Virus record (IMG/VR): IMGVR_UViG_3300021197_001081
Span: 1 to 56,070 of that record
Reading direction: 5' to 3' (one strand)
Origin: a virus
Taxonomy: Duplodnaviria; Caudoviricetes
DNA: 56,070 nt
Each line of letters opens with the position of its first letter. Within the stretch, counting starts at the first letter, position 1. The position numbers were made by a program, and so were the translations under genes. Below the pieces are notes generated by a model. That model worked only from the letters and a program-made list of their open reading frames with translations. It was not told where the DNA came from and made no database searches. Shown one piece after another: positions 21,326-47,635 of this stretch.

Positions 21326-24300
21326 TGGATAAATTTACAGAGTTATATAATTACTTAAAGGAAGAAGGATTAACAGATTTATCTGCAGAAGAATTCAAAG
21401 CTGAGTATGCAGCAGGTACTGCTAAAAATACTGAACTATATTCTTATTTAAAAGCTGAAAAATTAACAGATTTAGATGCGGAAAAATTTAATATAGAGTA
21501 TTTCCCTGGTGTTGAAAAAAAAAATCCAAACGACATTTCTCCTTCAAACACTCCAGAGGTTATTACGGACTCTACTACAGAAGCTCCAGAGGTCGTGGAT
21601 ACTTCTTCGGATACCACCACACTTGAAAAACCTTTAGGTGACAATACTGTAGTAGATGTACAGGAAGAAGACAATATGGTTACCGAATACCCTGCATACG
21701 ATCCTCGTGAGCAAGGTAAAGAAATAAATGCAAACCCAATTACATATAATTCCAGCGACTCTCAGTTTGACAAATCTTTGGCTTTTGTAACAGCTGATTT
21801 AATTGACAGAGAGGAAAGTGAAGTAGTCAACAGAATGAGATATCATTTTGAAGACTATGGTTTTGACTTTGAACAAGGTGGTGGCTTTATGAGTGGATTA
21901 GATGGAATGAAAGTTACATCTAAAGATGATCCCACTAAAAGCATAAACATTAATCTTGATCCTTTTTTTGGAGATATTTTTGGTGGTGAGTCAGGGCCTG
22001 CAAAAGAACTTAGAAAGTTTTTAAAAGAAAACAGAAGAACTGACCAGAGAATGCAAAGTCTGGATGCTTCGTATGATAAAAACAGAAAAAAATATTTTAG
22101 TGCAGAAGCAACTAAAGAAGATATTCAAGCTGTAAGAAATTCAGCTAAATCTTTAAATGAAGATTATAAAGTTTATCAAGACAGAAAAGCTATTCATGAA
22201 GCAGAAATGGAAGCATTAATGTCTCAAGGCAAGGATGTACAGAACACTCCTGAATGGAAGCTTAAATACCAACAAACTTTATTGGCAGGTAAAAGATTAA
22301 AACAATTTCAAAACAAACTTCAAAAAGACTATAGTAGTTACACACAATTTCAAAGTCAAGTAAATTCATCTGTTGGTAATTATATATCAATGAAAGAATC
22401 AGACGATAGTACATTTTTTGGCGGTTTAGTAAATGATTTTGTTGGCCCTGGTGTAAGTGAAGTTCTTGCGTCTGTTTGGGGTGCTGGTGTTGATGGGTTT
22501 TATAAAGTAGCTCAGTTTATTGACGAAGACTTTGGAATGACTGCTGAAGAAAAAAAAGATCGTTATATTGATATTGCAAAAGATCTTGGGTATCCAGTTC
22601 CTGAAAATATAGAAGACGATGCTGTTTACACAAAGTGGTTAGAAGGTTTGCAGGAGCAAGGGTTTGATGATGAAGAAGTAGAGTCAGAAAAAATAGGTGA
22701 ATTGTCAATTAATACGTTTCCTAAAGAAATAATGGAACGACTTGAAGCTGATGGTTTTGATTTAAGTAAGCCAACTTTAAATGGACAATACTTTAATAAA
22801 AATCAGTCAGGATTTAATAAATTTTTAAATGGACAATACATTGACCTTCCTGACTATGCTTATGATAAAACAAGAGGTGAGCGATTAAAAAGATTGGTAT
22901 TAGATCAAGAGGTAAAAGAAAATAAAAATCCACAAAAAGATTTAATAAAAAAATACTTTAACGAAATATTATCTGCAGATGATATCTCAGATGAAAAATA
23001 CGCTAAACAATCTAATAGCAATATTGTTTATACTGGACTTTCTGGTCTTGCTAAGTCTCTTCCATCTGTATTAGTTTCTTTTGCTTCAAGAGGAAAAATA
23101 GCTCCAGCTGTTGGAGTGGGAGCGGCAAAAAGAAATTTAGTTGCAAGAGGGTTAGGTCTAACAACAAAAGGAGGAATTGCCCAAACAATTTCATTTGCTA
23201 TGTTGCAAGCTGAAGCAATGAATGTTGAAATGAATAATGATCCTGATTTTAAGTATGTTACTGAGTCAGAAAGAAAAAACATAATTATTCCAACATCTAT
23301 TACAGTAGGTCTTTTAGAACGTTATGGTTTTAGAAATATAGCGTCAAACAAAGCTATAATGACTGGTTTAATGAACAGGGTAACTAATGCTTTACCTAAA
23401 GGAGCTACCGCGCAAATGTTCAAAAACAAGATGAATGATGTTATTCAAAGCAATATTGCTCGTGGCATTTTTTCAAACAAAGCTGTAAAAGCTGCTACAA
23501 CTTTTACTGGTCGAGTTACTAAAGCTGCTTTGGCAGAAGCAGAAACAGGTGGTCTTCAGCAAATAGCTGAGATGGGCTACAAAGATGTGTGGAACAACAT
23601 GAATAATAAAGACATGTTTGAACAGCCTGAATTATGGACTAAAGAGTTTTGGGGAACTGTTGGGCATGCTGCAGCTGCTGAAGCTGTAGGTGGTTTTGTG
23701 ATGGGTGTTCCTGGGGCAGTAATTGCGGCAGCTAAAAACAAAACAGAAGACTTGCTTTCTGATGATCTTGTTGACATGTTTGACATGATAAGAAATGATG
23801 AAATAACTGTAGAAGCTTATCAAGCACAATTAGATTTATCAGTTGCTAATGGTACAATAACAGCTGAAAAAGCAGCACAAGATTTATTAGATTTTAACAC
23901 ATTAAGTGGAGCTGCTAATACTTTACCAAGCGACTTAGATGTTAACTCAAGAAAAAAAGGATTATTATTGATTTTTGAGCAGCAGCAATTAGAAGCTGAA
24001 ATGGAAAAATTAAATAAGAATTTAAATTCTTATAAAACCAAAGAAGCCAGAGTTGAAGAAATAAAAAACGAAATTGGACAGCTTGGAACTAATCAAGCTC
24101 AAGCAAATACCAATTTAAGAAATGAGACTGAAGGAATTCAAGATTCTGTTTTAGTTACAGAAGAAGATGCCACAAAATCTTTACAAGATAAGGGGGTGCA
24201 AAACCCTACAGTTGAACAAATTAAAGCCGAACAAGATGCCTTACAAAAGCAAAGCACAACGAGCCTGGATGCACAAGAATCTTCCAGAAGTAGCGAAGAG

Positions 24301-27300
24301 GTGGGACAAAGCGTACCCAACAGCCAGTCTACCCAACAGAGCGAAACCGAAGACAAAGCTCAAGACAAGAAGAAGACCGAAGAGAAAGTAAGTAAAGACG
24401 ATCAAAATGACATTGATGATTTCTTTGGTGATGAAGTTTTAGATGACGTTGAAACCTCTTCAGATAATTTATCTATAAATAGAAAACAAGTAGAGGGAGA
24501 TACAGAAATAGAGAATACAACTTTAGCAGCAGCTGTAGTAAATAAAGCTAAAAAAGCTGCACGAGCAATTGCTAAAATAGCACCTGAAGTGAAGATAGTT
24601 TTGCACGACACTCAAGCAGAATACGAAAAGTACGCAACCAAGGGTAGTCGTGGGTATTACAATCCAAACAGTAAAGTTGTACATATTAATTTAACTAAGG
24701 CTAAAGGAAACACAGTAGCTCACGAAGTTTTTCATGCGGTATTTTTAGATAAAATATCAGGGGGTGATGTTCAAGCTCAACAAGCAGCTTTAAAACTGAT
24801 AACCTCTGTAAGAAAAACCTTACCAGCTGAATCATTGTTAGCTAAAAGAATAGATAATTTTGCTAAAAATTATGATGAAAATATTAAAAATGAAGAGAAG
24901 TTAGCAGAGTTATTCTCTTTGATGGCCACTGAATATAAAACATTAAAGAAGCCAGGGAAGAATAAAGTTATAGAATTTATAAGATCAATGGCGGCTAAAT
25001 TAGGCGTTAAAATCCCTGGTGGTTTTGGTAAAACAGACGAGTCAGTTATAGATTTTATGAATGCATTTTCTAAAAAAGTTAGAACTGGTACTGAAATAAC
25101 AGAAGGTGATGTAGATGTTTTAAATAAAATAAATGAAATGCAGGGCGGTGAAAACATTACCAATCCTGCAAATGCATTTAGAGAACAAAGGGTAGGAGGC
25201 TTTGATATTAAATATACCGAAAACGAAAAAATATCACAGTATATAAAAGATGGAAGAATTACTGAGCCAAAAAACCTTGAAAAATTTAGAGGAAATAAAA
25301 CTGCAATTACTTCACCTGATGACATGGTGGTTGGTGAAATATCTTTTAATGGTGAAAAAATATTTGAAGGACAAGGAGGTTTATTTTTTGTAACTAAGTT
25401 TGGAGATGTATGGGCTGCTGGAGATAAAACGACAGCAACTAAATTAGCAGACATGATTAATAGAAGTGTTGATGCTAATGGCGGAAAAGGATATCTTACT
25501 TTGACGAAAGGGACAGATAAAAAATTGATTAGTAGTGCCGCTGGAGTTAATTCAAGTCTTGGGGTAATTGATGTTTTGCTTAATCAAAATATTTTACCTA
25601 AATCAGTTGTAAGAACTGCTGTTAAAAAAGTTATAAGCGATTTCGGTGGTGGTAATATAGATTTAACTGGAACATCAAAACAAATGGTTTCACAGTTAAG
25701 AGATTTTTTTGGAGATAAAAAGAATGCCACTTTTGAAGCTCGTGGAACTGTAATGGAAAGAATAATTGCAGAGATAGGTATGGATAAAAGACTTGGAGAT
25801 TTAAAAAAGAAGAACTCTAAGTTAACTAAAATTTTAGGAGGTGATTCATCTAAAACTTTGGTGGGTGGTAAGACAAGTAGAACAGCAAATAGTTTAGTAG
25901 ACTTAGTTGCTTCATTAGCCGCAGAACAAATCACCAAAGGATTAAATACTGGAGATATTTATGGAGTGATTGAAGTGGATGGTAAAGTTGAATATTATCC
26001 AGGCACTCATCCAAGTTACCCTGCACATATAAGACAGGTTAACAAAAAACCTCCTACGCTGCACTTACCTAAAAACAGACCTGCTGCAAGGGATTACTTG
26101 ATGAGAGATAGTAATAAAATTTATAAAACTCCAGCTGTTAGTCCAACAGAATATGGATCATTTTATGAGTTAGATTCTAAAGTAGAAAGTTCTACTGAAT
26201 CAAAGACTGAGAAAAGACAAGGTAGAGAACAGTCTACTGAACAGCAAGTAAAAGATCAAACTGGAATGCCAGCAAGTGGCTTCTATAGCGCTCAAGCTAT
26301 GGTATCTGATATCCAACGCCAGTTTAATAGAATTGGTCCAGGATATGTGGCTAAAAGAGCCAAGCAAGGCGCTTATGGAGGCGGTGGCGGCGTATATGTC
26401 ATTGGCCCTAATAAGCGTATTGTAAAAAATCCTACACGAAAAGGACGTCAACAGGCAATGGATAATGAAAACGATTTGCTTAGAATTATAATAGCTGGCC
26501 GAGAAGAAGGAGGTTTTGAAGATGCAGCTATAAAAGATTATTTAAAGAGAAGAAAAAGAAAGGTTGATGGTAAAACAGCAAGTGCTTATAGTGCGAAAGA
26601 AATTAATGCTGCATTCAAAGTTTTAGAAAGCGAAGCTTTTGATTCTTACATGTTTAGAGAATACCCTACAAGTTTTAATGACATAAAAGGTGGTTTTCTG
26701 GCTGGTCTTAAATTAATGAAAGATGTTGATACTTACTATAAAAAATTAGTTGAAAAGAATAATTTAATTAAAGACAGAGTTGCAAAAAACAGGAAGACAA
26801 AACAAGTACCACTGACTGACGAACAAATTAATTTAAAAGTTTTAGATTACTTTATGTCGCTCCCTGGATACAAAAGCGTAGGGGTAAAAGGTAAAAGACA
26901 GACATCTCAACAGCTTGCTATGGAACGTGATATGTTAAACATACTGCTTCCTGATCCATTAAAGGCTAATCCTAAACGTATTGCAGCAATAAACAGAAGG
27001 ATAAAAAACATAAAGTTTACTGAAAGAAACCTTAAAGGTGTTCAGAGAGCTTTAAGAAATTACATAAGAACCGTACTACCAAGAGATTTATATACTAAAA
27101 AAGAAATAACTGATTTAATTGATAAGGTGAATAGAGTAAACGCTACAAACTTTGAATCAGTTAAAGATGAGGTTTTTAAAATAGTTACTACAAAAACAAA
27201 CAAAAGACTTGAGAGTGTTTTATTTAAGATGCTCGACAAAGGGTATACCACTATTCAAAGTGGTAGATTTAAAGGTGTAAAAATTGATAATGAAACTCGT

Positions 27301-30243
27301 AAAAAGTTAAATCGTATCAATAAATTAGTAGTGAACCCTAAGTCAACTGGAGATCAAATAATGGAAGCCAATGAAAAACTTTTAAAATTATATAATAAAG
27401 TTTCTACAGAAGAGGTGGTAGACGAAAAAGATAAAAAAAGTCGTAAGACTAAATCTACATTTAGTAAAAGTGATTTACAGCAGATGGCTGAAATTACATT
27501 AGCTATGCAGATAAACACATCTTTTACTCAAGAAATGAATGACTCTAATAAAACTACTCAGTTAAGCTCAGTAATCAATAGCTTAAAACAAATAGAAGAG
27601 TCTGGGAAAGCTAATTTTGAGTACGAATTACTACAAGACGCTATACAATACAGAGAGAATGAGAGAGCTGTATACAAGGATATGACAGGTATAGATATTG
27701 ATGCAAAACAATCACTTATTGACCAAGGTATACCTGAGAATGAAATTACTGAGTTTATGGTAAACGAAGAGTTTCAAAAAATTAAAAAAGATATTTCACT
27801 TGATGCTAAAGAATCAGGTGGCTTGAAAGTAGAAGGTGTTATAAAAAGATTTAAAGGTTCACTAAATAGTTTAGCCGCTAAAATTGAGCAAGGGTTATTT
27901 GGAAGTGCAGAAGATATGACAGGTTTGATAGATAGAATATCTACACAACCAGGGGAAATATTTGAAGGTGCAACTCAAGAGCTGACGCAGAAAAAAATAC
28001 GTTCTTCTTCAAGAGTTTATAAGTCAAGAATGATTGGACAGCAATTAAGTCTTTCTAATAAAATGACAGAATTATTTGGTGAGAAATGGGTTAAAATAAA
28101 CAGAAAAAACTCTCAGATGACTGAATCTATTGTTCGCAGTAAGGTCAAAGATGATTTACTACAAGGACAATTAAAAGAAGCTCAAGAAAATAAAACTCTG
28201 AAGAAAGGAGAACGAACAGCTTTAATTAATTCAATACAAAAGGAGATTGATCAAAACACAGTAAACTTAAGTCAAAACCAATTGCTTTATTATTACTCAC
28301 AGATGCAAGATCCTTCTTTAGAGGGGAGTATGATAAACACTTTTAATCCCACAAGAAAGGGGAATATAGTGTTTGATAATGAATTTAAGAGCAGAATAGA
28401 GCAAGAGATAAGCGATAAATTAGATGACAGATTAAAAGACCTGTCTGAGTGGATGATAAAAGATTATTATCCAACTTCTTATGACCACTACAATAATACT
28501 TACAAGAAGATTTACAGGACTGATATGCCTTGGAATCAAAACTATGCTGGTCGTGTGTATCGTCAAAACGAAAACGACATGGAGGCCTTAGATTTATTAG
28601 CCGACAGTCAATCATGGATTACAAACGTTGGTTCTGCAAGTACTAAAGTAAGAGTTCAAAACACAAACCCAATTGAAAAAGTAGATGGTATAGATGCATT
28701 ACTTAATTATACTAAGGATATGGAGTATTTTGCTGCATATGGTGTGGCTATAAGAGATATTAATAAAATATTTTCATCACCAATGATCAAAGAAACCATT
28801 AAAGAAAAATTTGGTTCTACTATTTACACATATATTGATGATTCTATAAAAAAAATAGCAAACAAGGGAATACAATCACAAAGACAAATACAAATAATAA
28901 ATACTTTTAATAATACATTTTTATTATCTCGTTTAGGTTTAAACCCAACACTTATATTAAAACAAATGACATCTTTCATCACTTATGGAAATGACATTGG
29001 TTATTTGAATTGGGTTAAAAATGCCGCTATGAGTACGACTCAAGCAAAAAAATTAGTAAACGAAGTTTTAGACAACTCAATTGTCCTACAAGACAGGTAT
29101 GGACAAACAATTAAAAGAGCTGTAGAAACATATGCTGATGAAAAGTTTGAAAAAATGAACGGTGGTTTATTAGAGCGTTTTGGATTGACAAACGCAAAAC
29201 AAGACAAGATTAGTAAAATTTTAATGTGGACCACAATGACAGGGGATAAAGGCGCTATACTTGTTGGTGGTGTTCCAAATTACTTATACTATAAAAATGA
29301 ATTTAAAAAGAAAAACCCTGAAGCATCAGAACAAGAGGTTATTGATCATGCAATAAAAAAGTTTGAAGCTGATACATTAAGAACTCAGCAGTCATCTGAT
29401 TTACAAGATAAAGATTACTTTCAAACTAAAGGGGCGCTTATAAGAGCCTTTAACATGTTCTTGACAACTCCAAAACAATATTTCCGTAGAGAAATTATTG
29501 CAGCAAGAAACATGTATAGAATTGTTAAAAGTGGTGGTAAGCAGGGTAAAGGGGTTATAAAAGATAATGGAGAATTAGATTACTGGAGAAGTTTAGGTAA
29601 ATCTGCAAGAAGTTTAGCAGTGTATCATGTGGTGATGCCAGTGGTATTCCAGTGGGTATCTGCTGGATTGCCAGGACTTTTAAGAGGGATGAATGAGGAG
29701 GACGAAAAAGATTTAGGAATAGCCGCTCTTTTAGGTAATTTAAATGCTTTGTTTATTATAGGAAAAGTAGCTGAGACTCTTAAAGATGTTGCGTTAGGCA
29801 AGCCTTGGGCAAAAACTCCATCAACAATTCCAATTTTAGGACAAACATCACAGCTGGCAGATTTATACATGCGTGCGCAAAAATCAAAAGGTGTAAAGAG
29901 AGAAGAAGCTATGAATAAATTTATGGCAGAAGCAATTGCTCTTACAGGTATACCAGCCCCACAATTAAGGAAGTTTATGAAAAACTTTTCTGAAATTGGT
30001 GACTCAAAATCTGCAGGGGAGTTTATCTTAAAACTTTTTAATTTTTCTGAATATCAGCAAAGAGGAGGTAAGAAAGGTAAAGGTTTTAAATTAACAAAAA
30101 CTGAACTAAAAGAATATTTCCCAGAACTATACCCAGAAACTGAAGAAGACGGTCCACTGGAAGATTATCTTAAATTACAGAAAGAAGCTAAAGCAGAACA
30201 AAAACGTTTAAGAAAAGAACTCCTTGATCAAATGTATAAATAA
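21325..30243 (+). CDS. Giant internal virion / large polyvalent protein with a zincin-like HEXXH domain
   Basis: 2972 aa. RGYYNPNSKVVHINL...AHEVFHAVFL at 24721-24735 with downstream EEKLAELF; helical C-terminal region. No DxDxD RNA polymerase motif seen. Confidence 0.7.
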   Translation: MDKFTELYNYLKEEGLTDLSAEEFKAEYAAGTAKNTELYSYLKAEKLTDLDAEKFNIEYFPGVEKKNPNDISPSNTPEVITDSTTEAPEVVDTSSDTTTLEKPLGDNTVVDVQEEDNMVTEYPAYDPREQGKEINANPITYNSSDSQFDKSLAFVTADLIDREESEVVNRMRYHFEDYGFDFEQGGGFMSGLDGMKVTSKDDPTKSININLDPFFGDIFGGESGPAKELRKFLKENRRTDQRMQSLDASYDKNRKKYFSAEATKEDIQAVRNSAKSLNEDYKVYQDRKAIHEAEMEALMSQGKDVQNTPEWKLKYQQTLLAGKRLKQFQNKLQKDYSSYTQFQSQVNSSVGNYISMKESDDSTFFGGLVNDFVGPGVSEVLASVWGAGVDGFYKVAQFIDEDFGMTAEEKKDRYIDIAKDLGYPVPENIEDDAVYTKWLEGLQEQGFDDEEVESEKIGELSINTFPKEIMERLEADGFDLSKPTLNGQYFNKNQSGFNKFLNGQYIDLPDYAYDKTRGERLKRLVLDQEVKENKNPQKDLIKKYFNEILSADDISDEKYAKQSNSNIVYTGLSGLAKSLPSVLVSFASRGKIAPAVGVGAAKRNLVARGLGLTTKGGIAQTISFAMLQAEAMNVEMNNDPDFKYVTESERKNIIIPTSITVGLLERYGFRNIASNKAIMTGLMNRVTNALPKGATAQMFKNKMNDVIQSNIARGIFSNKAVKAATTFTGRVTKAALAEAETGGLQQIAEMGYKDVWNNMNNKDMFEQPELWTKEFWGTVGHAAAAEAVGGFVMGVPGAVIAAAKNKTEDLLSDDLVDMFDMIRNDEITVEAYQAQLDLSVANGTITAEKAAQDLLDFNTLSGAANTLPSDLDVNSRKKGLLLIFEQQQLEAEMEKLNKNLNSYKTKEARVEEIKNEIGQLGTNQAQANTNLRNETEGIQDSVLVTEEDATKSLQDKGVQNPTVEQIKAEQDALQKQSTTSLDAQESSRSSEEVGQSVPNSQSTQQSETEDKAQDKKKTEEKVSKDDQNDIDDFFGDEVLDDVETSSDNLSINRKQVEGDTEIENTTLAAAVVNKAKKAARAIAKIAPEVKIVLHDTQAEYEKYATKGSRGYYNPNSKVVHINLTKAKGNTVAHEVFHAVFLDKISGGDVQAQQAALKLITSVRKTLPAESLLAKRIDNFAKNYDENIKNEEKLAELFSLMATEYKTLKKPGKNKVIEFIRSMAAKLGVKIPGGFGKTDESVIDFMNAFSKKVRTGTEITEGDVDVLNKINEMQGGENITNPANAFREQRVGGFDIKYTENEKISQYIKDGRITEPKNLEKFRGNKTAITSPDDMVVGEISFNGEKIFEGQGGLFFVTKFGDVWAAGDKTTATKLADMINRSVDANGGKGYLTLTKGTDKKLISSAAGVNSSLGVIDVLLNQNILPKSVVRTAVKKVISDFGGGNIDLTGTSKQMVSQLRDFFGDKKNATFEARGTVMERIIAEIGMDKRLGDLKKKNSKLTKILGGDSSKTLVGGKTSRTANSLVDLVASLAAEQITKGLNTGDIYGVIEVDGKVEYYPGTHPSYPAHIRQVNKKPPTLHLPKNRPAARDYLMRDSNKIYKTPAVSPTEYGSFYELDSKVESSTESKTEKRQGREQSTEQQVKDQTGMPASGFYSAQAMVSDIQRQFNRIGPGYVAKRAKQGAYGGGGGVYVIGPNKRIVKNPTRKGRQQAMDNENDLLRIIIAGREEGGFEDAAIKDYLKRRKRKVDGKTASAYSAKEINAAFKVLESEAFDSYMFREYPTSFNDIKGGFLAGLKLMKDVDTYYKKLVEKNNLIKDRVAKNRKTKQVPLTDEQINLKVLDYFMSLPGYKSVGVKGKRQTSQQLAMERDMLNILLPDPLKANPKRIAAINRRIKNIKFTERNLKGVQRALRNYIRTVLPRDLYTKKEITDLIDKVNRVNATNFESVKDEVFKIVTTKTNKRLESVLFKMLDKGYTTIQSGRFKGVKIDNETRKKLNRINKLVVNPKSTGDQIMEANEKLLKLYNKVSTEEVVDEKDKKSRKTKSTFSKSDLQQMAEITLAMQINTSFTQEMNDSNKTTQLSSVINSLKQIEESGKANFEYELLQDAIQYRENERAVYKDMTGIDIDAKQSLIDQGIPENEITEFMVNEEFQKIKKDISLDAKESGGLKVEGVIKRFKGSLNSLAAKIEQGLFGSAEDMTGLIDRISTQPGEIFEGATQELTQKKIRSSSRVYKSRMIGQQLSLSNKMTELFGEKWVKINRKNSQMTESIVRSKVKDDLLQGQLKEAQENKTLKKGERTALINSIQKEIDQNTVNLSQNQLLYYYSQMQDPSLEGSMINTFNPTRKGNIVFDNEFKSRIEQEISDKLDDRLKDLSEWMIKDYYPTSYDHYNNTYKKIYRTDMPWNQNYAGRVYRQNENDMEALDLLADSQSWITNVGSASTKVRVQNTNPIEKVDGIDALLNYTKDMEYFAAYGVAIRDINKIFSSPMIKETIKEKFGSTIYTYIDDSIKKIANKGIQSQRQIQIINTFNNTFLLSRLGLNPTLILKQMTSFITYGNDIGYLNWVKNAAMSTTQAKKLVNEVLDNSIVLQDRYGQTIKRAVETYADEKFEKMNGGLLERFGLTNAKQDKISKILMWTTMTGDKGAILVGGVPNYLYYKNEFKKKNPEASEQEVIDHAIKKFEADTLRTQQSSDLQDKDYFQTKGALIRAFNMFLTTPKQYFRREIIAARNMYRIVKSGGKQGKGVIKDNGELDYWRSLGKSARSLAVYHVVMPVVFQWVSAGLPGLLRGMNEEDEKDLGIAALLGNLNALFIIGKVAETLKDVALGKPWAKTPSTIPILGQTSQLADLYMRAQKSKGVKREEAMNKFMAEAIALTGIPAPQLRKFMKNFSEIGDSKSAGEFILKLFNFSEYQQRGGKKGKGFKLTKTELKEYFPELYPETEEDGPLEDYLKLQKEAKAEQKRLRKELLDQMYK
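24236..24391 (+). CDS. Overprinted basic microprotein (51 aa) in the +1 frame of the giant gene
   Basis: MPYKSKAQRAWMHKNLPEVAKRWDKAYP... resembles stand-alone phage microproteins of the MP(F/Y)KSKAQRxWM...AKRW type (recognised from memory). Confidence 0.6.
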   Translation: MPYKSKAQRAWMHKNLPEVAKRWDKAYPTASLPNRAKPKTKLKTRRRPKRK

Positions 30244-36309: not shown

Positions 36310-36478
36310 ATGTCGTTTTTATGTCGTTTTTAATTTATCTAACTCTTTGTTTATTAACTATTTACATTAATTAATGTCGATAATGTCAATAATATATAAA
36401 GAAGTATAGATGAATAATAGTTGATTTAATTTTTTTTTATATGGTTCTGCTGAACCTATTTTTTATGACATTTGTCAT
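36310..36478. repeat. ATGTCR iteron-like array 1, candidate replication origin
   Basis: ATGTCG at 36310, 36321 and 36374; ATGTCA at 36383; inverted TGACAT at 36466; AT-rich spacers. Confidence 0.55.
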
Positions 36479-40337: not shown

Positions 40338-40377
40338 GAATAGGGAGGAATCGAACCTCCCAAGCACCATGCTATTC
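40338..40377 (-). ncRNA. 40-nt tRNA-like element (acceptor stem plus T-arm, no anticodon arm), copy 1
   Basis: GAAUAG-CAUGGUGCUUG-GGAGG-UUCGAUU-CCUCC-CUAUUC-A. Confidence 0.65.
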
Positions 40378-41838: not shown

Positions 41839-41875
41839 AAATTATAGTTTTAAATATCTGCATTATTGCATTGAT

Positions 41876-41915
41876 ACTGGAGAAGGAATCGAACCTTACT
41901 TACAACCATTCCAGT
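41876..41915 (-). ncRNA. 40-nt tRNA-like element (acceptor stem plus T-arm, no anticodon arm), copy 2
   Basis: ACUGGA-AUGGUUGUAAG-UAAGG-UUCGAUU-CCUUC-UCCAGU-A. Confidence 0.6.
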
Positions 41916-41932
41916 TAGTCGGACAGCGTGTG

Positions 41933-42427
41933 CTAAAGCTTGTAGCTATAGTTCTCTGCTACCCATGTGCATAAAGTCTCTCTATTGCCATCTGACAGCT
42001 CCATGAACAGGTTAAATACATTAGCAGTTCCACCATGACCATTTCTCTTGTTGAGGTTGTTCCATTTGGCTTCTATGTGATTAGCCAGTGACGTACCCTC
42101 ACCAAAAGCTTTTTGTATCCATCCAGCTGGGAAGTTATACGCAAAGTACATGAAGTTAGTAATTTGGTCAGCTGCAGCATCTCTTTTCTCTTCTGCTTCA
42201 TCATACTCGTCATACCATTCTGTCCATACGTACAGCTCCTGCTCATGTGCGTCATCCAGTATGAACTCATCAGAGCATTCAGCGTAGGCACATTTGTAGT
42301 TCTCTTTCAACCAATCCACCAAGCTGGATTCATCTTTAATGGTTTCGTCATTGTGAAGAAGAAATCCTTCATACATTCCTTCTCCAGTGATAATACATGT
42401 TCTTGGTTCTTTGTTTAAATTACTCAT
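41933..42427 (-). CDS. Acidic hypothetical early protein
   Basis: 164 aa; ATG is 22 nt downstream of a predicted hammerhead cut site. Confidence 0.7.
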   Translation of the reverse strand: MSNLNKEPRTCIITGEGMYEGFLLHNDETIKDESSLVDWLKENYKCAYAECSDEFILDDAHEQELYVWTEWYDEYDEAEEKRDAAADQITNFMYFAYNFPAGWIQKAFGEGTSLANHIEAKWNNLNKRNGHGGTANVFNLFMELSDGNRETLCTWVAENYSYKL

Positions 42428-42443: not shown

Positions 42444-42493
42444 GATTAAGACGCTTCACAGCGTTTCGACTATTGAAGTCTCGTCAGTTAATC
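42444..42493 (-). ncRNA. Type I hammerhead ribozyme A
   Basis: GAUUAA-CUGACGA-GACU-UCAAU-AGUC-GAAA-CGCU-GUGA-AGCG-UC^UUAAUC: full conserved core and three perfect stems. Confidence 0.95.
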
Positions 42494-43079: not shown

Positions 43080-43220
43080 TTAAAATGGATTAGATGTTAC
43101 GAAATAGCTTAGTGCTATTACATTCTTTTTTACTTGTTCTAATTCGTACAGCTTTTGAGCTGTCTTGATTAATGCACAGTCAATACGTACATACTTGATT
43201 ACTGTTTTTGATTTACTCAT
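43080..43220 (-). CDS. Small hypothetical early protein (46 aa)
   Basis: MSKSKTVIKYVRIDCALIK...SNPF*; ATG is 22 nt after the hammerhead B cut. Not in the ORF track. Confidence 0.6.
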   Translation of the reverse strand: MSKSKTVIKYVRIDCALIKTAQKLYELEQVKKNVIALSYFVTSNPF

Positions 43221-43236
43221 TGTAGTTGAATTTTAA

Positions 43237-43286
43237 AGTTAAGACGCCTCTCGGCGTTTCGTCCTATATGGACTCATCAGTTAACT
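43237..43286 (-). ncRNA. Type I hammerhead ribozyme B
   Basis: AGUUAA-CUGAUGA-GUCC-AUAUA-GGAC-GAAA-CGCC-GAGA-GGCG-UC^UUAACU: canonical core, GNRA-capped stem III. Confidence 0.95.
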
Positions 43287-43623
43287 ATGCATCGTGAACA
43301 CAGCCAACTGCTGAGTTCTGCCACTCGAAGTACAACCCATGCTTCTCCAGTGTTTCTTGTAGTTTCTTGCTGCCCCAGTACATTTCAGTATCGTAGTAAT
43401 CTAACCACTCTTCTGCATTATACTCTTCTGCTTTTATCCAAAAGTATCCTCTGTAGTCTTGGTAACCTCGCTGGTTTTGATACCATATGTCTATTGGGCA
43501 ACCAAGTTTTTTTAACTCGATAAACGCTTTGATTGATGCTGGAGTCATGTGGCTGATTTCTTCAGCAGAAAACTCATTGTTAAACATTTTTTTTGTGTAC
43601 TTCACTGTTGTTGAATTTGACAT
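43285..43623 (-). CDS. First early gene, hypothetical protein
   Basis: 112 aa; UAG stop overlaps stem I of hammerhead B. Confidence 0.7.
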   Translation of the reverse strand: MSNSTTVKYTKKMFNNEFSAEEISHMTPASIKAFIELKKLGCPIDIWYQNQRGYQDYRGYFWIKAEEYNAEEWLDYYDTEMYWGSKKLQETLEKHGLYFEWQNSAVGCVHDA

Positions 43624-43646
43624 TTTAATTAAATTTAAAGATTAGT

Positions 43647-44030
43647 TATCGGTACGAGTATTGCTCTCGCTGGTCTGTCAATCAGATACCGATATTAGTG
43701 TCGTAAATTTCACTCTCAAGACTCGCACATTAACTCCATCCACAGATGGTTAAAGAGATGTCATTCGCTCTACAGAATCCTCAATTAAGGGATGCCAATA
43801 TTTTATCCTTGAAATCATTTTTACTTTATGTAAGACCTATGAACACCTTGGTGCTAACTACTTCGCTTGATAGATATGGATAGAGAGATAATCATAACAG
43901 AATCGTTAAATGATTGATTATCAGCAGTCTGCGTGAAGCACAGTTAAAGCAACACTTTAGATAATGTGTCGTAACTGCTTGATTCTCAGTAGTTTAGGTC
44001 AGAATGTCAATGAACGTGAGGTTTCCCCCC
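43647..44030 (-). ncRNA. Candidate ~400-nt structured leader/ncRNA of the early transcript
   Basis: Nested helices GACCUA/UAGGUC, AACUACU/AGUAGUU, CAGUUA/UAACUG, GAUAAUCA/UGAUUAUC, CCAUC/GAUGG and UAUCGGUA/UACCGAUA; no long ORF. Confidence 0.6.
44004..44029 (-). promoter_or_regulatory. boxB/boxA-like antitermination site
   Basis: GGGG-GAAA-CCUC GNRA hairpin followed by GUUCAUUGACAU, immediately after the promoter. Confidence 0.45.
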
Positions 44031-44034
44031 ATGG

Positions 44035-44065
44035 CGAATATACAACTTTATGTTTATATAACAAC
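44035..44065 (-). promoter_or_regulatory. Major early promoter (Bacteroidota sigma-A type)
   Basis: - strand GTTG (-33), 19-nt spacer, TATATTCG (-7 variant). Confidence 0.6.
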
Positions 44066-44255
44066 TATAAATGACAAATAAAATGTAAATAATTTGTCAG
44101 TAACTATGCTTTGCTGGACAGCAGTTCTCTTTACTTACTATCTACAAATGTATATGGTACTTTTACTTTCTAATTACTAACGGATTACATCAAAGCTGTT
44201 GACTATGTTTTGTTTGGGGTTATAGAGACTCGTACTGGGGTTAAGGGAAGGCTCT

Positions 44256-44486
44256 GTCCTTCTCCTTTTTTAATGTGTGCAGAAAATGTGCAACAATGGT
44301 TTTTATGTTTGCAGTATGAAAAACTATAATTGGTCAAACCTATCGGTACAGCAGAAAATAAATGTCAAACAATATGCAATCAACTTGTATGGAAAAAGAT
44401 GGCACACATCTAAACCAAACTTTTGCAGCAAACTGAACTACCTTGAAATCTACAGCATACTACATAGTTAGTCCTTCTCCTTTTTT
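44256..44486 (+). repeat. 16-bp direct repeat GTCCTTCTCCTTTTTT
   Basis: Exact copies at 44256-44271 and 44471-44486. Confidence 0.8.
44316..44471 (+). CDS. Small hypothetical protein (51 aa), probably leaderless
   Basis: MKNYNWSNLSVQQK...; TATGTTTG box at 44304-44311 only 4 nt before the ATG. Confidence 0.5.
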   Translation: MKNYNWSNLSVQQKINVKQYAINLYGKRWHTSKPNFCSKLNYLEIYSILHS

Positions 44487-44610
44487 GTGGGGTGGAAGGG
44501 GGGAGCAGGGGACATGTGTGCTGGAGCAGGGGCAATACGTGTAACTGGAGCTGGAGCTGGGAGATACTGCAGCTCTACCACCAGCTGGAGCTGGGGTTGG
44601 TACTGGAGCT
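44487..44610 (+). repeat. G-rich CTGGAGC repeat island
   Basis: CTGGAGC at 44521, 44545, 44551, 44585 and 44603, plus GGGAGC at 44501; followed by A-tracts. Confidence 0.7.
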
Positions 44611-44756
44611 TAACGAATTCTCAAAAAATCCGAAAAAAAAACTTGAAAAAATCCAAAGACATCAAAAAAAAAACGACTTTCTGTGATCACAACACGACTG
44701 TATTAGCTACTATAGCCCTAAACCTATAAGTGTCTGAACGCAAAAAAAATTTTTAC

Positions 44757-44764
44757 TATATTTG
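44757..44764 (+). promoter_or_regulatory. Bacteroidota-type -7 promoter box (TATATTTG)
   Basis: TAnnTTTG upstream of 44789. Confidence 0.6.
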
Positions 44765-44788
44765 TAGGGAACTTTTAAAACGCTTATT

Positions 44789-44986
44789 ATGAATAAGAAT
44801 GACTTTATTAACGGACTGTATGTAAAAGATGGACGCTTAATTAATGCGCGCCCAGAATCTGAGTCTGGCATTGCAAAAGCTTGTGCTATTAAACGTTCTG
44901 TACGTAATGACAGAAAGGTTAATCAAATAGCTGAAGGCATGGAGCTTGCGGATAACAAGAAAAAATTTAGACAGTTAAATTTTTAA
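44789..44986 (+). CDS. Small hypothetical protein
   Basis: 65 aa, with its own promoter and terminator. Confidence 0.65.
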   Translation: MNKNDFINGLYVKDGRLINARPESESGIAKACAIKRSVRNDRKVNQIAEGMELADNKKKFRQLNF

Positions 44987-45017
44987 AATGCTAATACATT
45001 TTATTAATTTTTAAATT

Positions 45018-45046
45018 AGAGGATCAATGTGATTCTCTTTTTTTTT
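45018..45046 (+). terminator. Rho-independent terminator
   Basis: AGAGGATC-AATGT-GATTCTCT followed by poly-T. Confidence 0.7.
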
Positions 45047-45064
45047 ATAACTACTGTTAATTAT

Positions 45065-45241
45065 TGACATTATTATGTCGATTATCCTGTCAATTTATTT
45101 TTACTAACTTATTGATTATTAATTACTTATTCTTTTAATGTCGAAAATGTCGAAAATAAATAGAATAATAATAAATAAAAATATAAAGAATAGTAAAAGT
45201 ATATATAAAGTAAGTGGAGTATTTTTCTTGACATTTGACAT
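45065..45241. repeat. ATGTCG iteron-like array 2
   Basis: ATGTCG at 45075, 45138 and 45147; TGACAT at 45065, 45229 and 45236; same layout as the 36.3 kb array. Confidence 0.55.
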
Positions 45242-45277
45242 TTGTTTAGTTTTGTGTTTATTATAAATATATTTTAC

Positions 45278-45285
45278 TATATTTG
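45278..45285 (+). promoter_or_regulatory. Bacteroidota-type -7 promoter box (TATATTTG)
   Basis: TAnnTTTG upstream of groEL. Confidence 0.6.
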
Positions 45286-45306
45286 TTCTAAATTAAATTT
45301 AATACA

Positions 45307-46923
45307 ATGAGCAATTATATTCCAAAGAACCTTGAGTTCGATCAGCCTGGTCGAAATAAATTAATAAAAGGGATTACAAAAATTTCTAAAGCAGTAAAGA
45401 GTACGTTAGGCCCACGCGGAAAAACAGTTCTAATAGAATCGCCTGAACATATCGGAGGTATGACAATAACAAAAGACGGTGTAACTGTAGCTAACTCTAT
45501 TTTTTTGGATGATCCTGTAGAGAACCTTGCGGTTCAAATGTTAAAAGATGCAGCACGTAGAACTGCTAACTCAGCTGGAGATGGAACGACTACAGCAATT
45601 GTATTAACCGAGGCTATTATAAAAGCTGGTGAAAGACTTCTAACAGAAAAAAATAATATAACTGAGGTTGTAAAATCAATAAACAGATTCAGTAAAATTA
45701 TTCTTAAAAAATTAAAAAAGAACTCACGAAAAATTACCAAGGCAAGGCTATTAGATGTTGCAACAATTTCAGCAAACAACGATAAGTCTTTAGGAAAAAT
45801 AATTGCTGATGCTTATAATAAAGTTGGAAAGAACGGTATTGTAACTGTAGAGCGATCTCAAAACCATGAGACATATGCCACAGTTACTAATGGAATAAAA
45901 GTTGATAGAGGTTATACTTCTAATTTATTTATCACTAATCAAAAAAACGATGAAGCAATCTTAGAAGATGTTTTAGTTTTAGTTTGTGACCAGGAGATAA
46001 GTAATATTCTACAAATAGAAAATGTTTTAAAACCAATCATTCAACAAAATAAAAAACTTCTCATCATTGGTCCATGCTCAGTCAATGTTGTGAATACCCT
46101 GGCGGCAAACGTAGTGCGTAACGGACTTAAGCTTTGTAATATTATACCACCACAATTTGGATATAAACAACACGAGCTTATGCAGGACATTGCGTTGTCG
46201 GTAGGGGCTAAATACTTTTCAGAAAAAACTGGAGATGATTTAAGTCTGTTAAGCATGGAAGATCTTGGTCATGCTGATAAAATTATTTCAGGAAAGAGTC
46301 AAACGGTTATCATTAAAAATAATCAAATGACTGAAGAGATAGAAAAAAGAATAACTGATCTTAAGGAACAACAAGAAAACACAGAAATAGTTTCAGATAA
46401 AGAGTTTATAAACGAGCGTATTGCAAGTTTATCAGGATCAATAGGAGCTATTTATGTTGGGGGTAATTCTGATATAGAGCAAAAAGAAAAGTATGACAGA
46501 GTAGAAGATGCTGTGTGTGCTGTTCGTAGCGCTTTGCAAGAGGGTATTGTAAGAGGTGGAGGACTTGCTTTATTTTATTCAAGAGAAGAACTTAGTTATA
46601 TTTCTAAGAAGACAGTTAATGATGACGAAAGTACAGCTATAGATATTCTAATGGAATCTTTATGTGCGCCATTAAGACAAATATTACAAAACGCTGGATT
46701 AAATCTTGATGAATACTACAATGTATCTACAACAAGTGATTCATGGATTCTTCAACAATTAGACGAGTACAATGTAAAGACTGAAGTAAAAGGAGATTTT
46801 TTTAAGATGGGTGTTATAGATCCTTTAAAAGTAACTAAGACTGCTTTTGAAAATTCAGTTAGTGTAGCAACAACTATTCTAACAACAAACGCAATAATAA
46901 CTCACGCGCGAGTAAAAGAATAA
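45307..46923 (+). CDS. groEL: Phage-encoded chaperonin GroEL (Cpn60)
   Basis: TLGPRG, ITKDGVTVA, AGDGTTTA, DRVEDAVCA and GVIDPLKVT motifs; no GGM tail. Confidence 0.97.
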   Translation: MSNYIPKNLEFDQPGRNKLIKGITKISKAVKSTLGPRGKTVLIESPEHIGGMTITKDGVTVANSIFLDDPVENLAVQMLKDAARRTANSAGDGTTTAIVLTEAIIKAGERLLTEKNNITEVVKSINRFSKIILKKLKKNSRKITKARLLDVATISANNDKSLGKIIADAYNKVGKNGIVTVERSQNHETYATVTNGIKVDRGYTSNLFITNQKNDEAILEDVLVLVCDQEISNILQIENVLKPIIQQNKKLLIIGPCSVNVVNTLAANVVRNGLKLCNIIPPQFGYKQHELMQDIALSVGAKYFSEKTGDDLSLLSMEDLGHADKIISGKSQTVIIKNNQMTEEIEKRITDLKEQQENTEIVSDKEFINERIASLSGSIGAIYVGGNSDIEQKEKYDRVEDAVCAVRSALQEGIVRGGGLALFYSREELSYISKKTVNDDESTAIDILMESLCAPLRQILQNAGLNLDEYYNVSTTSDSWILQQLDEYNVKTEVKGDFFKMGVIDPLKVTKTAFENSVSVATTILTTNAIITHARVKE

Positions 46924-46926
46924 ATT

Positions 46927-47184
46927 ATGAAACCAGTTGGAAAATATATTGTCATAAAAACTATTGAGGAAGAGGTTAAAACTTCTTCAGGTCTTTTATT
47001 ATCTGCATCAGACGTTGATGAATTTAGATATAGAAAAGGATATGTTGTTAAAGAAGGAACAGATGTTTCTGTAGTTAAACCGAAGGATCTTATTTATTAT
47101 GATAAAAATTCTGGATTTACTATGTTGATTAAGGATGAGCCTTACACTATTATCCAGGAAAGAGACGTAGTTATTGTTCTCTAA
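46927..47184 (+). CDS. groES: Co-chaperonin GroES (Cpn10)
   Basis: MKPVGKYIVIK, mobile loop KTSSGLLL, IIQERDV. Confidence 0.92.
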   Translation: MKPVGKYIVIKTIEEEVKTSSGLLLSASDVDEFRYRKGYVVKEGTDVSVVKPKDLIYYDKNSGFTMLIKDEPYTIIQERDVVIVL

Positions 47185-47635
47185 TTTCTTTATTCATTTC
47201 TTTAATCATATTACGATAAACTTTATCCATATATGATGCGTCATTTCTAAATAATGGATTGGCACACGCGGATTCTGCAATTTCCTCACCGTTTAACTTT
47301 TTGTAAATAGTATTTATTATTCTTTTGGCTTTATATGTCAATTCATATAAGGTCGTTTCATTACCTTTTCTTTTTCTCCAAACATGAATCCACTCTTCTT
47401 TAAGAAGTTTACTGAAACGATTTACATCCCAGGACATTATTTCTTCATACTCTTTGAATTGACTTTTATTAAAAATTTGTTCGCTGTACAAAAACAGTAA
47501 CATCTCTAAATCAGGAGTTCCTAAACCGTATTTAGCCTTTACCCAATATCTTATAACTCTCCAGTATTTTAGAAAATCATGATCAGGCAGTTTCCTGGTA
47601 GTATTTTTCCGCGGATAGACTCCTTTAAATTTCAT
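47171..47635 (-). CDS. Putative winged-helix DNA-binding protein
   Basis: 154 aa; LEMLLFLY...RFSKLLKEEWI...LYELTYKAKRII resembles a MarR-like wHTH. Confidence 0.55.
   Translation of the reverse strand: MKFKGVYPRKNTTRKLPDHDFLKYWRVIRYWVKAKYGLGTPDLEMLLFLYSEQIFNKSQFKEYEEIMSWDVNRFSKLLKEEWIHVWRKRKGNETTLYELTYKAKRIINTIYKKLNGEEIAESACANPLFRNDASYMDKVYRNMIKEMNKEIREQ

Follow-up and report, generated by a model that had tools for sequence, protein, structure and literature searches.

A conserved structured RNA predicted to lead the early operon of a marine Flavobacteriia podovirus

Introduction

What fills the long gap that separates the early promoter from the first early gene in the virus record IMGVR_UViG_3300021197_001081 (IMG/VR; Duplodnaviria, Caudoviricetes), and what might it be good for? 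This record, which we analyzed over its full length of 56,070 bases and call the window in the following, belongs to a ca. 60-kb marine Flavobacteriia podovirus with two divergent gene sets that are separated by the gap in question. An earlier note on the window had marked positions 43647-44030 as its longest stretch poor in open reading frames (ORFs) and had interpreted the minus strand there as a highly structured leader at the start of the early transcript, either a cis-acting antiterminator similar to put RNAs or a new large noncoding RNA (ncRNA) of phages, possibly with a leader peptide inside. Here, we report that positions 44030-43624 of the minus strand form, as judged from their homologues, a conserved, noncoding, and structured RNA of three domains and ca. 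385 nucleotides (nt) between an early promoter and the first early gene. The last of these domains is a compact three-way junction that might separate the leader RNA from the operon downstream of it.

A conserved noncoding RNA at the head of the early operon

The gap turned out to be larger than originally described, with no ORF of at least 70 amino acids (aa) in 43624-44486 and the next promoter-preceded ORF at 44789. Its minus strand features a Bacteroidota-type promoter (Table 1) that was called from the motif TTG/TAnnTTTG, which we take to be the promoter consensus of Bacteroidota, and the box of this promoter reads TATATTTG in the relatives L005, L027, L030, L034, and L035. Transcription is predicted to start around 44030, ca. 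5 nt past the promoter, in agreement with the earlier placement of the leader at the beginning of the early transcript. A weak hint of this start comes from the RNA runs X19 and X20, each of which gave a single 151-nt contig over 43887-44035 that ends at 44035, too little to count.

Homologues of the leader were found in marine viral contigs, metagenome contigs, and contigs of metagenome-assembled genomes (MAGs), where they constitute ca. six sequence lineages. Twenty full leaders were chosen as representatives; they are between 56% and 98% identical to the window and fall into around five length classes of about 270, 360, 380, 394, and 455 nt. No ORF on either strand is conserved across these 20 leaders, and the proposed leader peptide could not be upheld: The 22-codon ORF (43818-43750) exists only in the leader type of the window (7/20 rows), GTG or GTT stands at its start in 11 of the 20 rows, and the peptides are unrelated.

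Our structural model was written from window coordinates and comprises 16 helices with 89 pairs (Table 1). Covariation in its support was found across the 20 leaders both by RNAalifold and by pair counts. RNAalifold detected 33 pairs, 14 of them with compensatory changes, and the first long-range helix of domain 2 (43824-43820/43707-43703) shows C:G, A:U, G:C, and U:A at one and the same position. In the full model, 85.7% of all cells are paired compared to 31.8% to 42.7% when the partners are slid by 1 to 3 columns, changes on both sides are seen at 27 pairs instead of 6 to 9, and the covariation score amounts to 0.238 instead of 0.048 to 0.080, while none of 500 shuffles reached the observed paired percentage or covariation score. 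Alignment is poor in the 5' half of the two most divergent classes, whose rows were retained and hence scored as unpaired. Among the model pairs, G-U cells exceed A-C cells (131 versus 56), an excess that speaks for the minus strand as the folded one.

The weight of this case lies, as far as the alignment tells, in the retention of whole helices. All helices named in the earlier note are complementary in the window at the positions given there, and the outer helix of domain 1 (44000-43995/43839-43834) has four to six of its six pairs in 13/13 well-aligned rows, with a double change in L176. The helix stacked on it keeps seven of seven pairs in 13 rows, including an exchange of A:U for G:C in the four L005-like rows, and the outer stem of the long hairpin keeps seven or eight of its eight pairs in 13 rows. 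The terminal junction is kept in all 20 rows. For a hairpin described at 43753-43730, it is the core that is present in 20/20 rows and only this core that we count as kept. The arm 43977-43972/43946-43941 fared worse, as it is not conserved and the four L005-like rows have lost its 3' strand by a deletion; the conserved alternative to it is 43979-43974/43928-43923. Leaders similar to L027 have a different 5' half, yet a closing helix (GACUUCCC/GGGAAGUC) can be recognized by eye at the same place. The second long-range helix of domain 2 is only 62.5% paired, owing to register shifts.

Rfam 15 has no family at gathering score within 43624-44030, and scans of the leader with E-values up to 5 and up to 10 gave chance-level matches only, e.g., snoR16 with 20.2 bits (gathering 70). 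A match to the S4-Flavobacteria leader at 43775-43816 (19.0 bits; gathering 35.2; E 8) was dismissed as fortuitous, since it requires an insertion of 10 nt and the covarying long-range helix accounts better for the AAGG that is paired locally in this match.

Table 1. Predicted features of the leader RNA, its promoter, the first ORF, and the boundary elements downstream
Feature	Coordinates	Strand	Description
Bacteroidota-type promoter	44035..44064	-	TTG (44064-44062), 19-nt spacer, TATATTCG (44042-44035)
Conserved 5' box	43998..44016	-	CGUUCAUUGACAUUCUGAC; columns (nearly) invariant in 20-leader alignment, all leader types
Domain 1	43834..44000	-	closing helix 44000-43995/43839-43834 stacked on 43994-43988/43862-43856; model helices 1-8
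Domain 1, side hairpin	43855-43842	-	inside the closing helices
Domain 1, inner junction	43979-43974/43928-43923, 43971-43966/43955-43950, 43943-43939/43933-43929	-	model helices
Domain 1, long hairpin	43922-43915/43894-43887	-	inner stem 43908-43905/43898-43895; model helices
Domain 2	43703..43824	-	long-range helices 43824-43820/43707-43703 and 43814-43807/43721-43714; model helices 9-13
Domain 2, hairpin	43793-43790/43780-43777	-	inside the long-range helices
Domain 2, hairpin	43771-43768/43757-43754	-	loop GAUAACCAA in most leader types
Domain 2, hairpin	43749-43745/43740-43736	-	loop UGUR
Domain 3, three-way junction	43647..43694	-	48 nt
P1 of junction	43694-43688/43653-43647	-	7 base pairs (bp)
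P2 of junction	43686-43683/43677-43674	-	hairpin, covarying
P3 of junction	43670-43666/43658-43654	-	5 bp, 7-nt loop AGCAAUA, invariant closing G:C
Tail and 5' untranslated region (UTR)	43624..43646	-	A, conserved CUAA (43645-43642), A/U-rich to ATG at 43623
First ORF	43285..43623	-	112 aa; no family assigned
Type I hammerhead	43237..43286	-	between 112-aa and 46-aa ORFs; Rfam RF00163, 35.9 bits (gathering 34)
Second hammerhead	42444..42493	-	before 164-aa ORF; RF00163 25.8 bits, below gathering; passes core-and-stem scan
Mini tRNA-like element	41875..41915	-	before 37-aa ORF; 6-bp acceptor-like stem, 11-nt linker, T-arm GGUUCGAUUCC
Second mini tRNA-like element	40338..40377	-	before 200-aa ORF; GAAUAG/CUAUUC stem, T-arm GGAGG-UUCGAUU-CCUCC

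The terminal three-way junction

The most conserved part of the leader is its terminal junction, where 99.5% of 206 cells are paired across 13 distinct sequences and changes on both sides are found at 10 of the 16 pairs, compared to 0 to 3 with slid partners. In all 13 sequences, P3 directly abuts the 3' strand of P1 with no nucleotide between them, which creates a geometry like that of the acceptor and T-arm of a transfer RNA (tRNA): The acceptor-like P1 with its 7 bp is stacked on P3, whose 5 bp carry a loop of 7 nt. At the level of sequence, this loop is AGCAAUA or AGCAAAA and is followed by a tail N-CUAA, different from the T-loop consensus UUCRANY and a 3' NCCA. The junction is no hammerhead either, as judged by the core CUGANGA, the GAAA, and the cleavable UH expected where three hammerhead stems meet: Rfam has no hammerhead match at 43647-43694, CUGAUUGA lies inside the covarying P2, and no GAAA is found between the stems.

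The junction ends 19 to 40 nt upstream of a start codon, in the window ca. 23 nt before the first ATG, and the A/U-rich UTR that follows it resembles the one found behind hammerheads and behind a short type of leader in relatives (see below). It also occurs by itself, as in L126/L179, where a stand-alone junction lies inside the operon between a 111-aa and a 204-aa ORF. In L197, one junction follows the leader and a second scored copy (3011-3062; 33.1 bits) comes after four ORFs, with all three stems changed and the loops and CUAA kept; a third junction-like element of this locus with the loop AGCGAAA (2744-2794) was found by eye and is unscored.

Hammerheads and tRNA-like elements at other gene boundaries

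Five sets of structured elements are found just before start codons in the window, and these include hammerheads, T-arm elements, and small hairpins. The type I hammerhead behind the first ORF is the only Rfam family at threshold in the window, and its cut is predicted 3' of C43243 from the family consensus. Using a core-and-stem scan of the window and 79 GroEL loci, we found 13 distinct hammerhead-like elements in 9 of these 80 sources, all of them on the operon strand and with an ATG within 45 nt downstream. Further Rfam hammerheads were detected in L005 and L035, and L197 has a hammerhead with a long stem III that was recognized by eye. The hammerheads of the window, L005, L035, L004, and L197 are located between early gene cassettes, 15 to 30 nt before a start codon.

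The mini tRNA-like elements of the window have no D or anticodon arm, and similar ones are present in L030, L032, L035, L072, L076, and L087. For the one at 41875-41915, the Rfam tRNA model gave only 16.9 bits (E 7.6). With its default thresholds, ARAGORN made no call, and when relaxed, it made a poor one of 94 nt at 41875-41968 together with many obvious false calls. An acceptor-like stem with a linker of 11 to 32 nt was found in 13/18 T-arm contexts, several of which then continue with UCUAA.

An optional and swappable cassette

The comparison of related loci indicates that the long leader is a swappable cassette present in some close relatives only. L030 and L032 share the upstream region and the promoter with the window but carry a leader of ca. 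90 nt with a single hairpin and a UTR of the same type. The same 140-aa first gene follows the long leader in L035 and the short one in L030. The gene after the long leader has 112 aa in the window and L005, 128 aa in L034, and 140 aa in L035. L004 begins instead with a small additional ORF and a hammerhead-like element, and the 112-aa gene is preceded by this kind of element in L004 and by the junction in the window and L005.

What the leader RNA might do

Of the two interpretations originally offered, the new large phage ncRNA or leader has stood up, being conserved, noncoding, strand-specific, and covarying and beginning where the promoter predicts a start, while the put-like antiterminator has remained without specific support. 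The leader is probably a new phage RNA. Our favored account, which we put forward tentatively, is that of a new early phage RNA that becomes separated from the messenger RNA (mRNA) by a processing element at the cistron boundary, where both processing and function are what we infer. The junction would serve as this cistron-boundary processing and insulating element and might be cut by host RNase P or RNase Z or else by self-cleavage. These RNases are our first guess because of the acceptor- and T-arm-like geometry of the junction and the true T-arm elements at boundaries a few genes further on. Such a cut would release the upstream two-domain RNA of ca. 335 nt (44030 to ca. 43695) as an early phage ncRNA, and the first mRNA would then begin with the short standard leader that later cistrons acquire by hammerhead cutting. 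Once free, the RNA might bind or decoy a host factor early in infection, though this is a guess.

Parts of this account have precedents. In the passages of Perreault et al. 2011 (PMC3088659) on which we draw, clustered hammerheads are described to cut phage-related polycistronic RNAs and to flank genes in phages and prophages. The operon of the window likewise has type I hammerheads upstream of start codons, and the junction occupies the same slot and swaps with a hammerhead before the same gene; unlike these hammerheads, it lacks the hammerhead core, and the large two-domain RNA has no counterpart in those passages. RNase P, according to the excerpted parts of PMC11143913, cuts the C4 RNA precursor of phages P1/P7, phage M3 RNA, and operon mRNAs. 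Compared to non-tRNA substrates of RNase P and RNase Z as far as these parts describe them, the junction is similar in its 7 bp on 5 bp, its G:C-closed 7-nt loop, and its position at the 3' end of a long RNA, and true T-arm mini tRNA-like elements are found at other boundaries of the same operon. It is different in its AGCAAUA loop and in having no CCA, D arm, or anticodon arm, and its cleavage is presumed.

The operon also invites comparison to other known systems. MALAT1-mascRNA and mitochondrial tRNA punctuation are examples of tRNA-like processing, and in phage T7, RNase III sites between early genes cut the early polycistronic transcript into defined mRNAs. Structured intercistronic elements are common to T7 and the window, where processing is postulated, but the latter has three-way junctions, ribozymes, and tRNA-like elements rather than RNase III hairpins. 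ROOL and GOLLD are large phage-associated ncRNAs that are often found beside tRNAs; our leader is similarly a large and ornate phage-borne RNA beside a tRNA-like structure, but it is much smaller, belongs to another host clade, lies inside an mRNA leader, and has no Rfam match. Among the papers listed by our literature searches, none paired hammerheads with Flavobacterium or Cellulophaga phages, though supplementary ribozyme lists could hold members, and none described RNA elements of marine Flavobacteriia phages, though such phages are abundant. The listed titles and abstract openings on phage hammerheads, tRNA-like elements, and polycistronic RNA mention nothing like the leader element.

The operon combines three kinds of structured boundary elements in what would be a single transcript, namely hammerheads, mini tRNA-like T-arm elements, and the new three-way junction, which are swappable before the same genes and thereby make the purpose of ribozymes between phage genes testable. 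The junction offers a concrete candidate, either as a new ribozyme or as a new substrate of RNase P, and the large leader RNA would be a new family among the ornate RNAs of phages.

Several observations weigh against our account. The high degree of structure claimed at first is not reflected in folding energy, as RNAfold gave -88.6 kcal/mol for the minus strand of 43647-44030 compared to -86.2 +/- 5.8 kcal/mol for dinucleotide shuffles (z -0.41), 31 of 100 of which fold as well or better (plus strand: z +0.30). With regard to covariation, "further pair types" are fewer in the model (56) than in shuffles (68.6), with 500/500 shuffles at least as high, and kinship inflates the signal because there are only ca. 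six lineages. An all-against-all scan of alignment columns gave many spurious complementary column pairs, and its use for finding loop-loop or pseudoknot partners was uninformative, since kinship alone produces many matches. Furthermore, the model is partly derived from the window and the junction alignment was fitted to the model, and the conserved 5' box overlaps helix 1 and might be conserved for reasons at the level of DNA. In the RNA runs X15 and X16, contigs cover 28/30 and 30/30 bins evenly on both sides of the promoter; this even cover of 40-47 kb is therefore no proof of transcription, as the contigs could be DNA, and contigs cannot show RNA ends. At the junction, neither ARAGORN (default or relaxed) nor the Rfam tRNA model (E up to 10) finds a tRNA, the loop AGCAAUA is not UUCRANY, and CUAA stands where CCA would be. 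Finally, a second homology model (R2; see below) found no further junction copies in 92 sources, which makes the junction far rarer than hammerheads.

Among the alternatives, we consider it possible though on the unlikely side that the whole RNA stays on the mRNA as a riboswitch-like sensor in cis or as a stability or translation module that would tune the expression of the early operon or of its first gene, with the junction as a protective or insulating 5' structure. Such a role is suggested by the direct position of the leader between promoter and first ATG, by the junction always lying 19 to 40 nt before the start codon, and by the strong conservation of loops and junctions (GAUAACCAA, AGCAAUA, and UACGAC) as in RNAs that bind ligands or proteins, and cleavage at the junction is indeed only something that we infer. 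On the other hand, the downstream gene varies among phages, the junction is also found between cistrons without the large RNA, no terminator or alternative fold masking the start codon was seen, and Rfam has no match to any riboswitch family.

A bolder version of the favored account, with two new RNA classes side by side, in which the junction is a new self-cleaving ribozyme or a minimal tRNA-mimic punctuation that releases a trans-acting RNA of ca. 335 nt within shuffled and insulated operon cassettes, seems unlikely to us as a whole. If true, the freed RNA might act, e.g., as a decoy against host defense or an RNA-binding protein, and early operons would be made of shuffled cassettes, with a ribozyme, tRNA mimic, or junction as the insulator of each one.

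We are decidedly doubtful that the junction is specifically a new class of self-cleaving ribozyme that replaces the hammerheads of other cistron boundaries. It shares the slot and the downstream UTR with hammerheads, and ca. 20 loop and junction nucleotides are conserved while all three stems covary; Weinberg and colleagues reportedly discovered new ribozyme classes in 2015 through their association with hammerheads. However, the junction has no hammerhead core, with CUGANNGA inside a covarying hairpin, and Rfam scans with E up to 10 revealed no twister, twister-sister, pistol, hatchet, or hepatitis delta virus (HDV) match, while small conserved junctions are equally typical of protein or RNase sites.

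We give even less credence to a processive antiterminator similar to put or EAR that would modify the RNA polymerase by which it was made and so carry this polymerase into the replication genes, past the terminator-like sites at 39271-39246 and 36513-36495. The RNA is indeed promoter-proximal and structured like the cis-acting antiterminator RNA put of phage HK022, and the two sites are terminator-like hairpins with U-tracts that follow it on the same strand before the genes for recombination and replication are reached. Yet no minus-strand site of this kind was found between the leader and 39271, and the put form consists of two adjacent stem-loops of ca. 70 nt just downstream of the promoter, whereas the leader, known here from sequence alone, differs in size and architecture with its three domains, 16 helices, and ca. 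385 nt. Close relatives with the same promoter and downstream genes can also do without it, its most conserved part is found mid-operon in other phages, and Rfam revealed no resemblance in sequence or family.

Last and very improbable, a function of the conserved sequence at the level of DNA (operators, a second promoter, or an origin) or as a short peptide instead of an RNA could invoke the TTGACAT...TGAC box with its sigma-70-like scan match TTGACA-17-GAGAAT at 44010-43982, the repeats and A-tracts just upstream (44487-44700), and the presence of the 22-codon ORF, but is disfavored by helices that are kept via changes on both sides and via G-U pairs, which would be A-C on the other strand, and by the lack of conservation of that ORF.

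Homologues, phage, and host

Homologues of the leader RNA were collected by several routes, of which the large collections were reached through exact patterns only. With the 112-aa protein as query, 11 viral loci were retrieved, and the alignment extends into the leader in 4 of them: L002 and L003 are nearly identical to the window, L005 is ca. 76% identical from 44018 down, and L004 aligns only over the last ca. 130 nt. A pattern derived from the conserved leader end matched 16 viral stretches, 8 of them true, and a first model (R1) built on five sequences recovered 9 copies from 93 sources. In GroEL neighborhoods, R1 found the leader at 2/79 loci (L034 and L035), with several loci having less than 1 kb upstream of GroEL and hence too little sequence to show its absence. 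A looser pattern yielded 39 viral stretches including 31 new ones, among which R1 confirmed L115, L120, and, weakly, L126. Pattern searches of metagenomes gave 46 stretches with 23 confirmed by R1, and those of a genome collection gave 11 stretches with 5 confirmed by R2 at 72.6 bits or more; before the latter scan, 28 distinct pattern contexts comprised 12 leader elements and 16 chance-like matches in coding sequence. Applied to whole records, R1 found one copy each in those of L027 and L005, a less sensitive route that missed the weak copy of L126, and none in MW202828.1, the closest deposited uncultured phage, or in MT497065.1, a cultured Elemovirus. When possible targets in trans were sought for the conserved pyrimidine-rich strand, only the leader locus itself came up. 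Four members of the genome collection (L191, L192, L194, and L200) are small contigs in gammaproteobacterial MAGs whose leader end is of the L005 type; these are probably misbinned phage contigs and therefore uninformative on the host.

The virus record has a G+C content of ca. 32% and an estimated completeness of ca. 88%. Its plus strand codes for the large terminase, the portal, and major virion proteins, and GroEL is encoded on the same strand from 45307. On the minus strand, the early genes extend from 43623 to ca. 30472, first as a module of small ORFs and then with annealing protein, exonuclease, primase, and helicase. All 87 matches of the terminase among phage records are from Flavobacterium, Cellulophaga, Tenacibaculum, or Maribacter phages or from uncultured viruses, the best ones being an uncultured virus (73.8% identity) and, among cultured phages, an Elemovirus (46.6%). 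These matches make a marine member of the Flavobacteriia the most likely host. Pfam and PHROGs found nothing for the small ORFs next to the leader, and blastn of 43200-45400 against phage records gave no match. Within the virion module, an ORF of 2,972 aa (21325-30243, plus strand) has no PHROG or Pfam match.

The 5' box and the divergent intergenic region

The leader RNA opens with the box TTGACAT...TGAC (44010-43998). Tandem TTGACAT-like boxes are found at 45228-45243 (plus strand, GroEL) and ca. 36380-36400 (minus strand, primase) in addition to 44010-43998 (minus strand, leader start), and a phage regulator, for instance the 154-aa protein encoded at 47171-47635, might bind there. Because similar repeats occur at other promoters, part of the conservation of the 5' box is possibly due to the DNA level, and besides being part of the RNA, the box might serve as an operator or a promoter-like site in the DNA.

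Further upstream, a terminator-like hairpin (GGGAAGG...CCTTCTC with a T-run; 44245-44271, plus strand) faces the early promoter, and its region is kept in L030, L032, L034, and L035. An insert of 215 nt at 44256-44486 (plus strand) is bordered on either side by a 16-nt direct repeat (GTCCTTCTCCTTTTTT; identical copies at 44256 and 44471) and codes for a 61-aa ORF (44286-44471) without Pfam match. Neither L003 nor the contigs of two RNA runs contain it, and in these runs, a separate contig with ca. 93% identity to the insert and with different flanks has a roughly tenfold higher depth. The block at 44487-44740 consists of G+C-rich short direct repeats (two copies each of GGAGCAGGGG and CTGGAGCTGG) followed by A-tracts and the conserved box TAGGGCTATAGTAGC on the minus strand. 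It sits between the divergent promoters, is kept in relatives, and may be an origin or a regulatory region. On its far side, two copies of TTTTTACTATATTTGT with a TAnnTTTG box (44758-44765 and 45279-45286, plus strand) precede the 65-aa ORF at 44789 and GroEL and look like host-type promoters.

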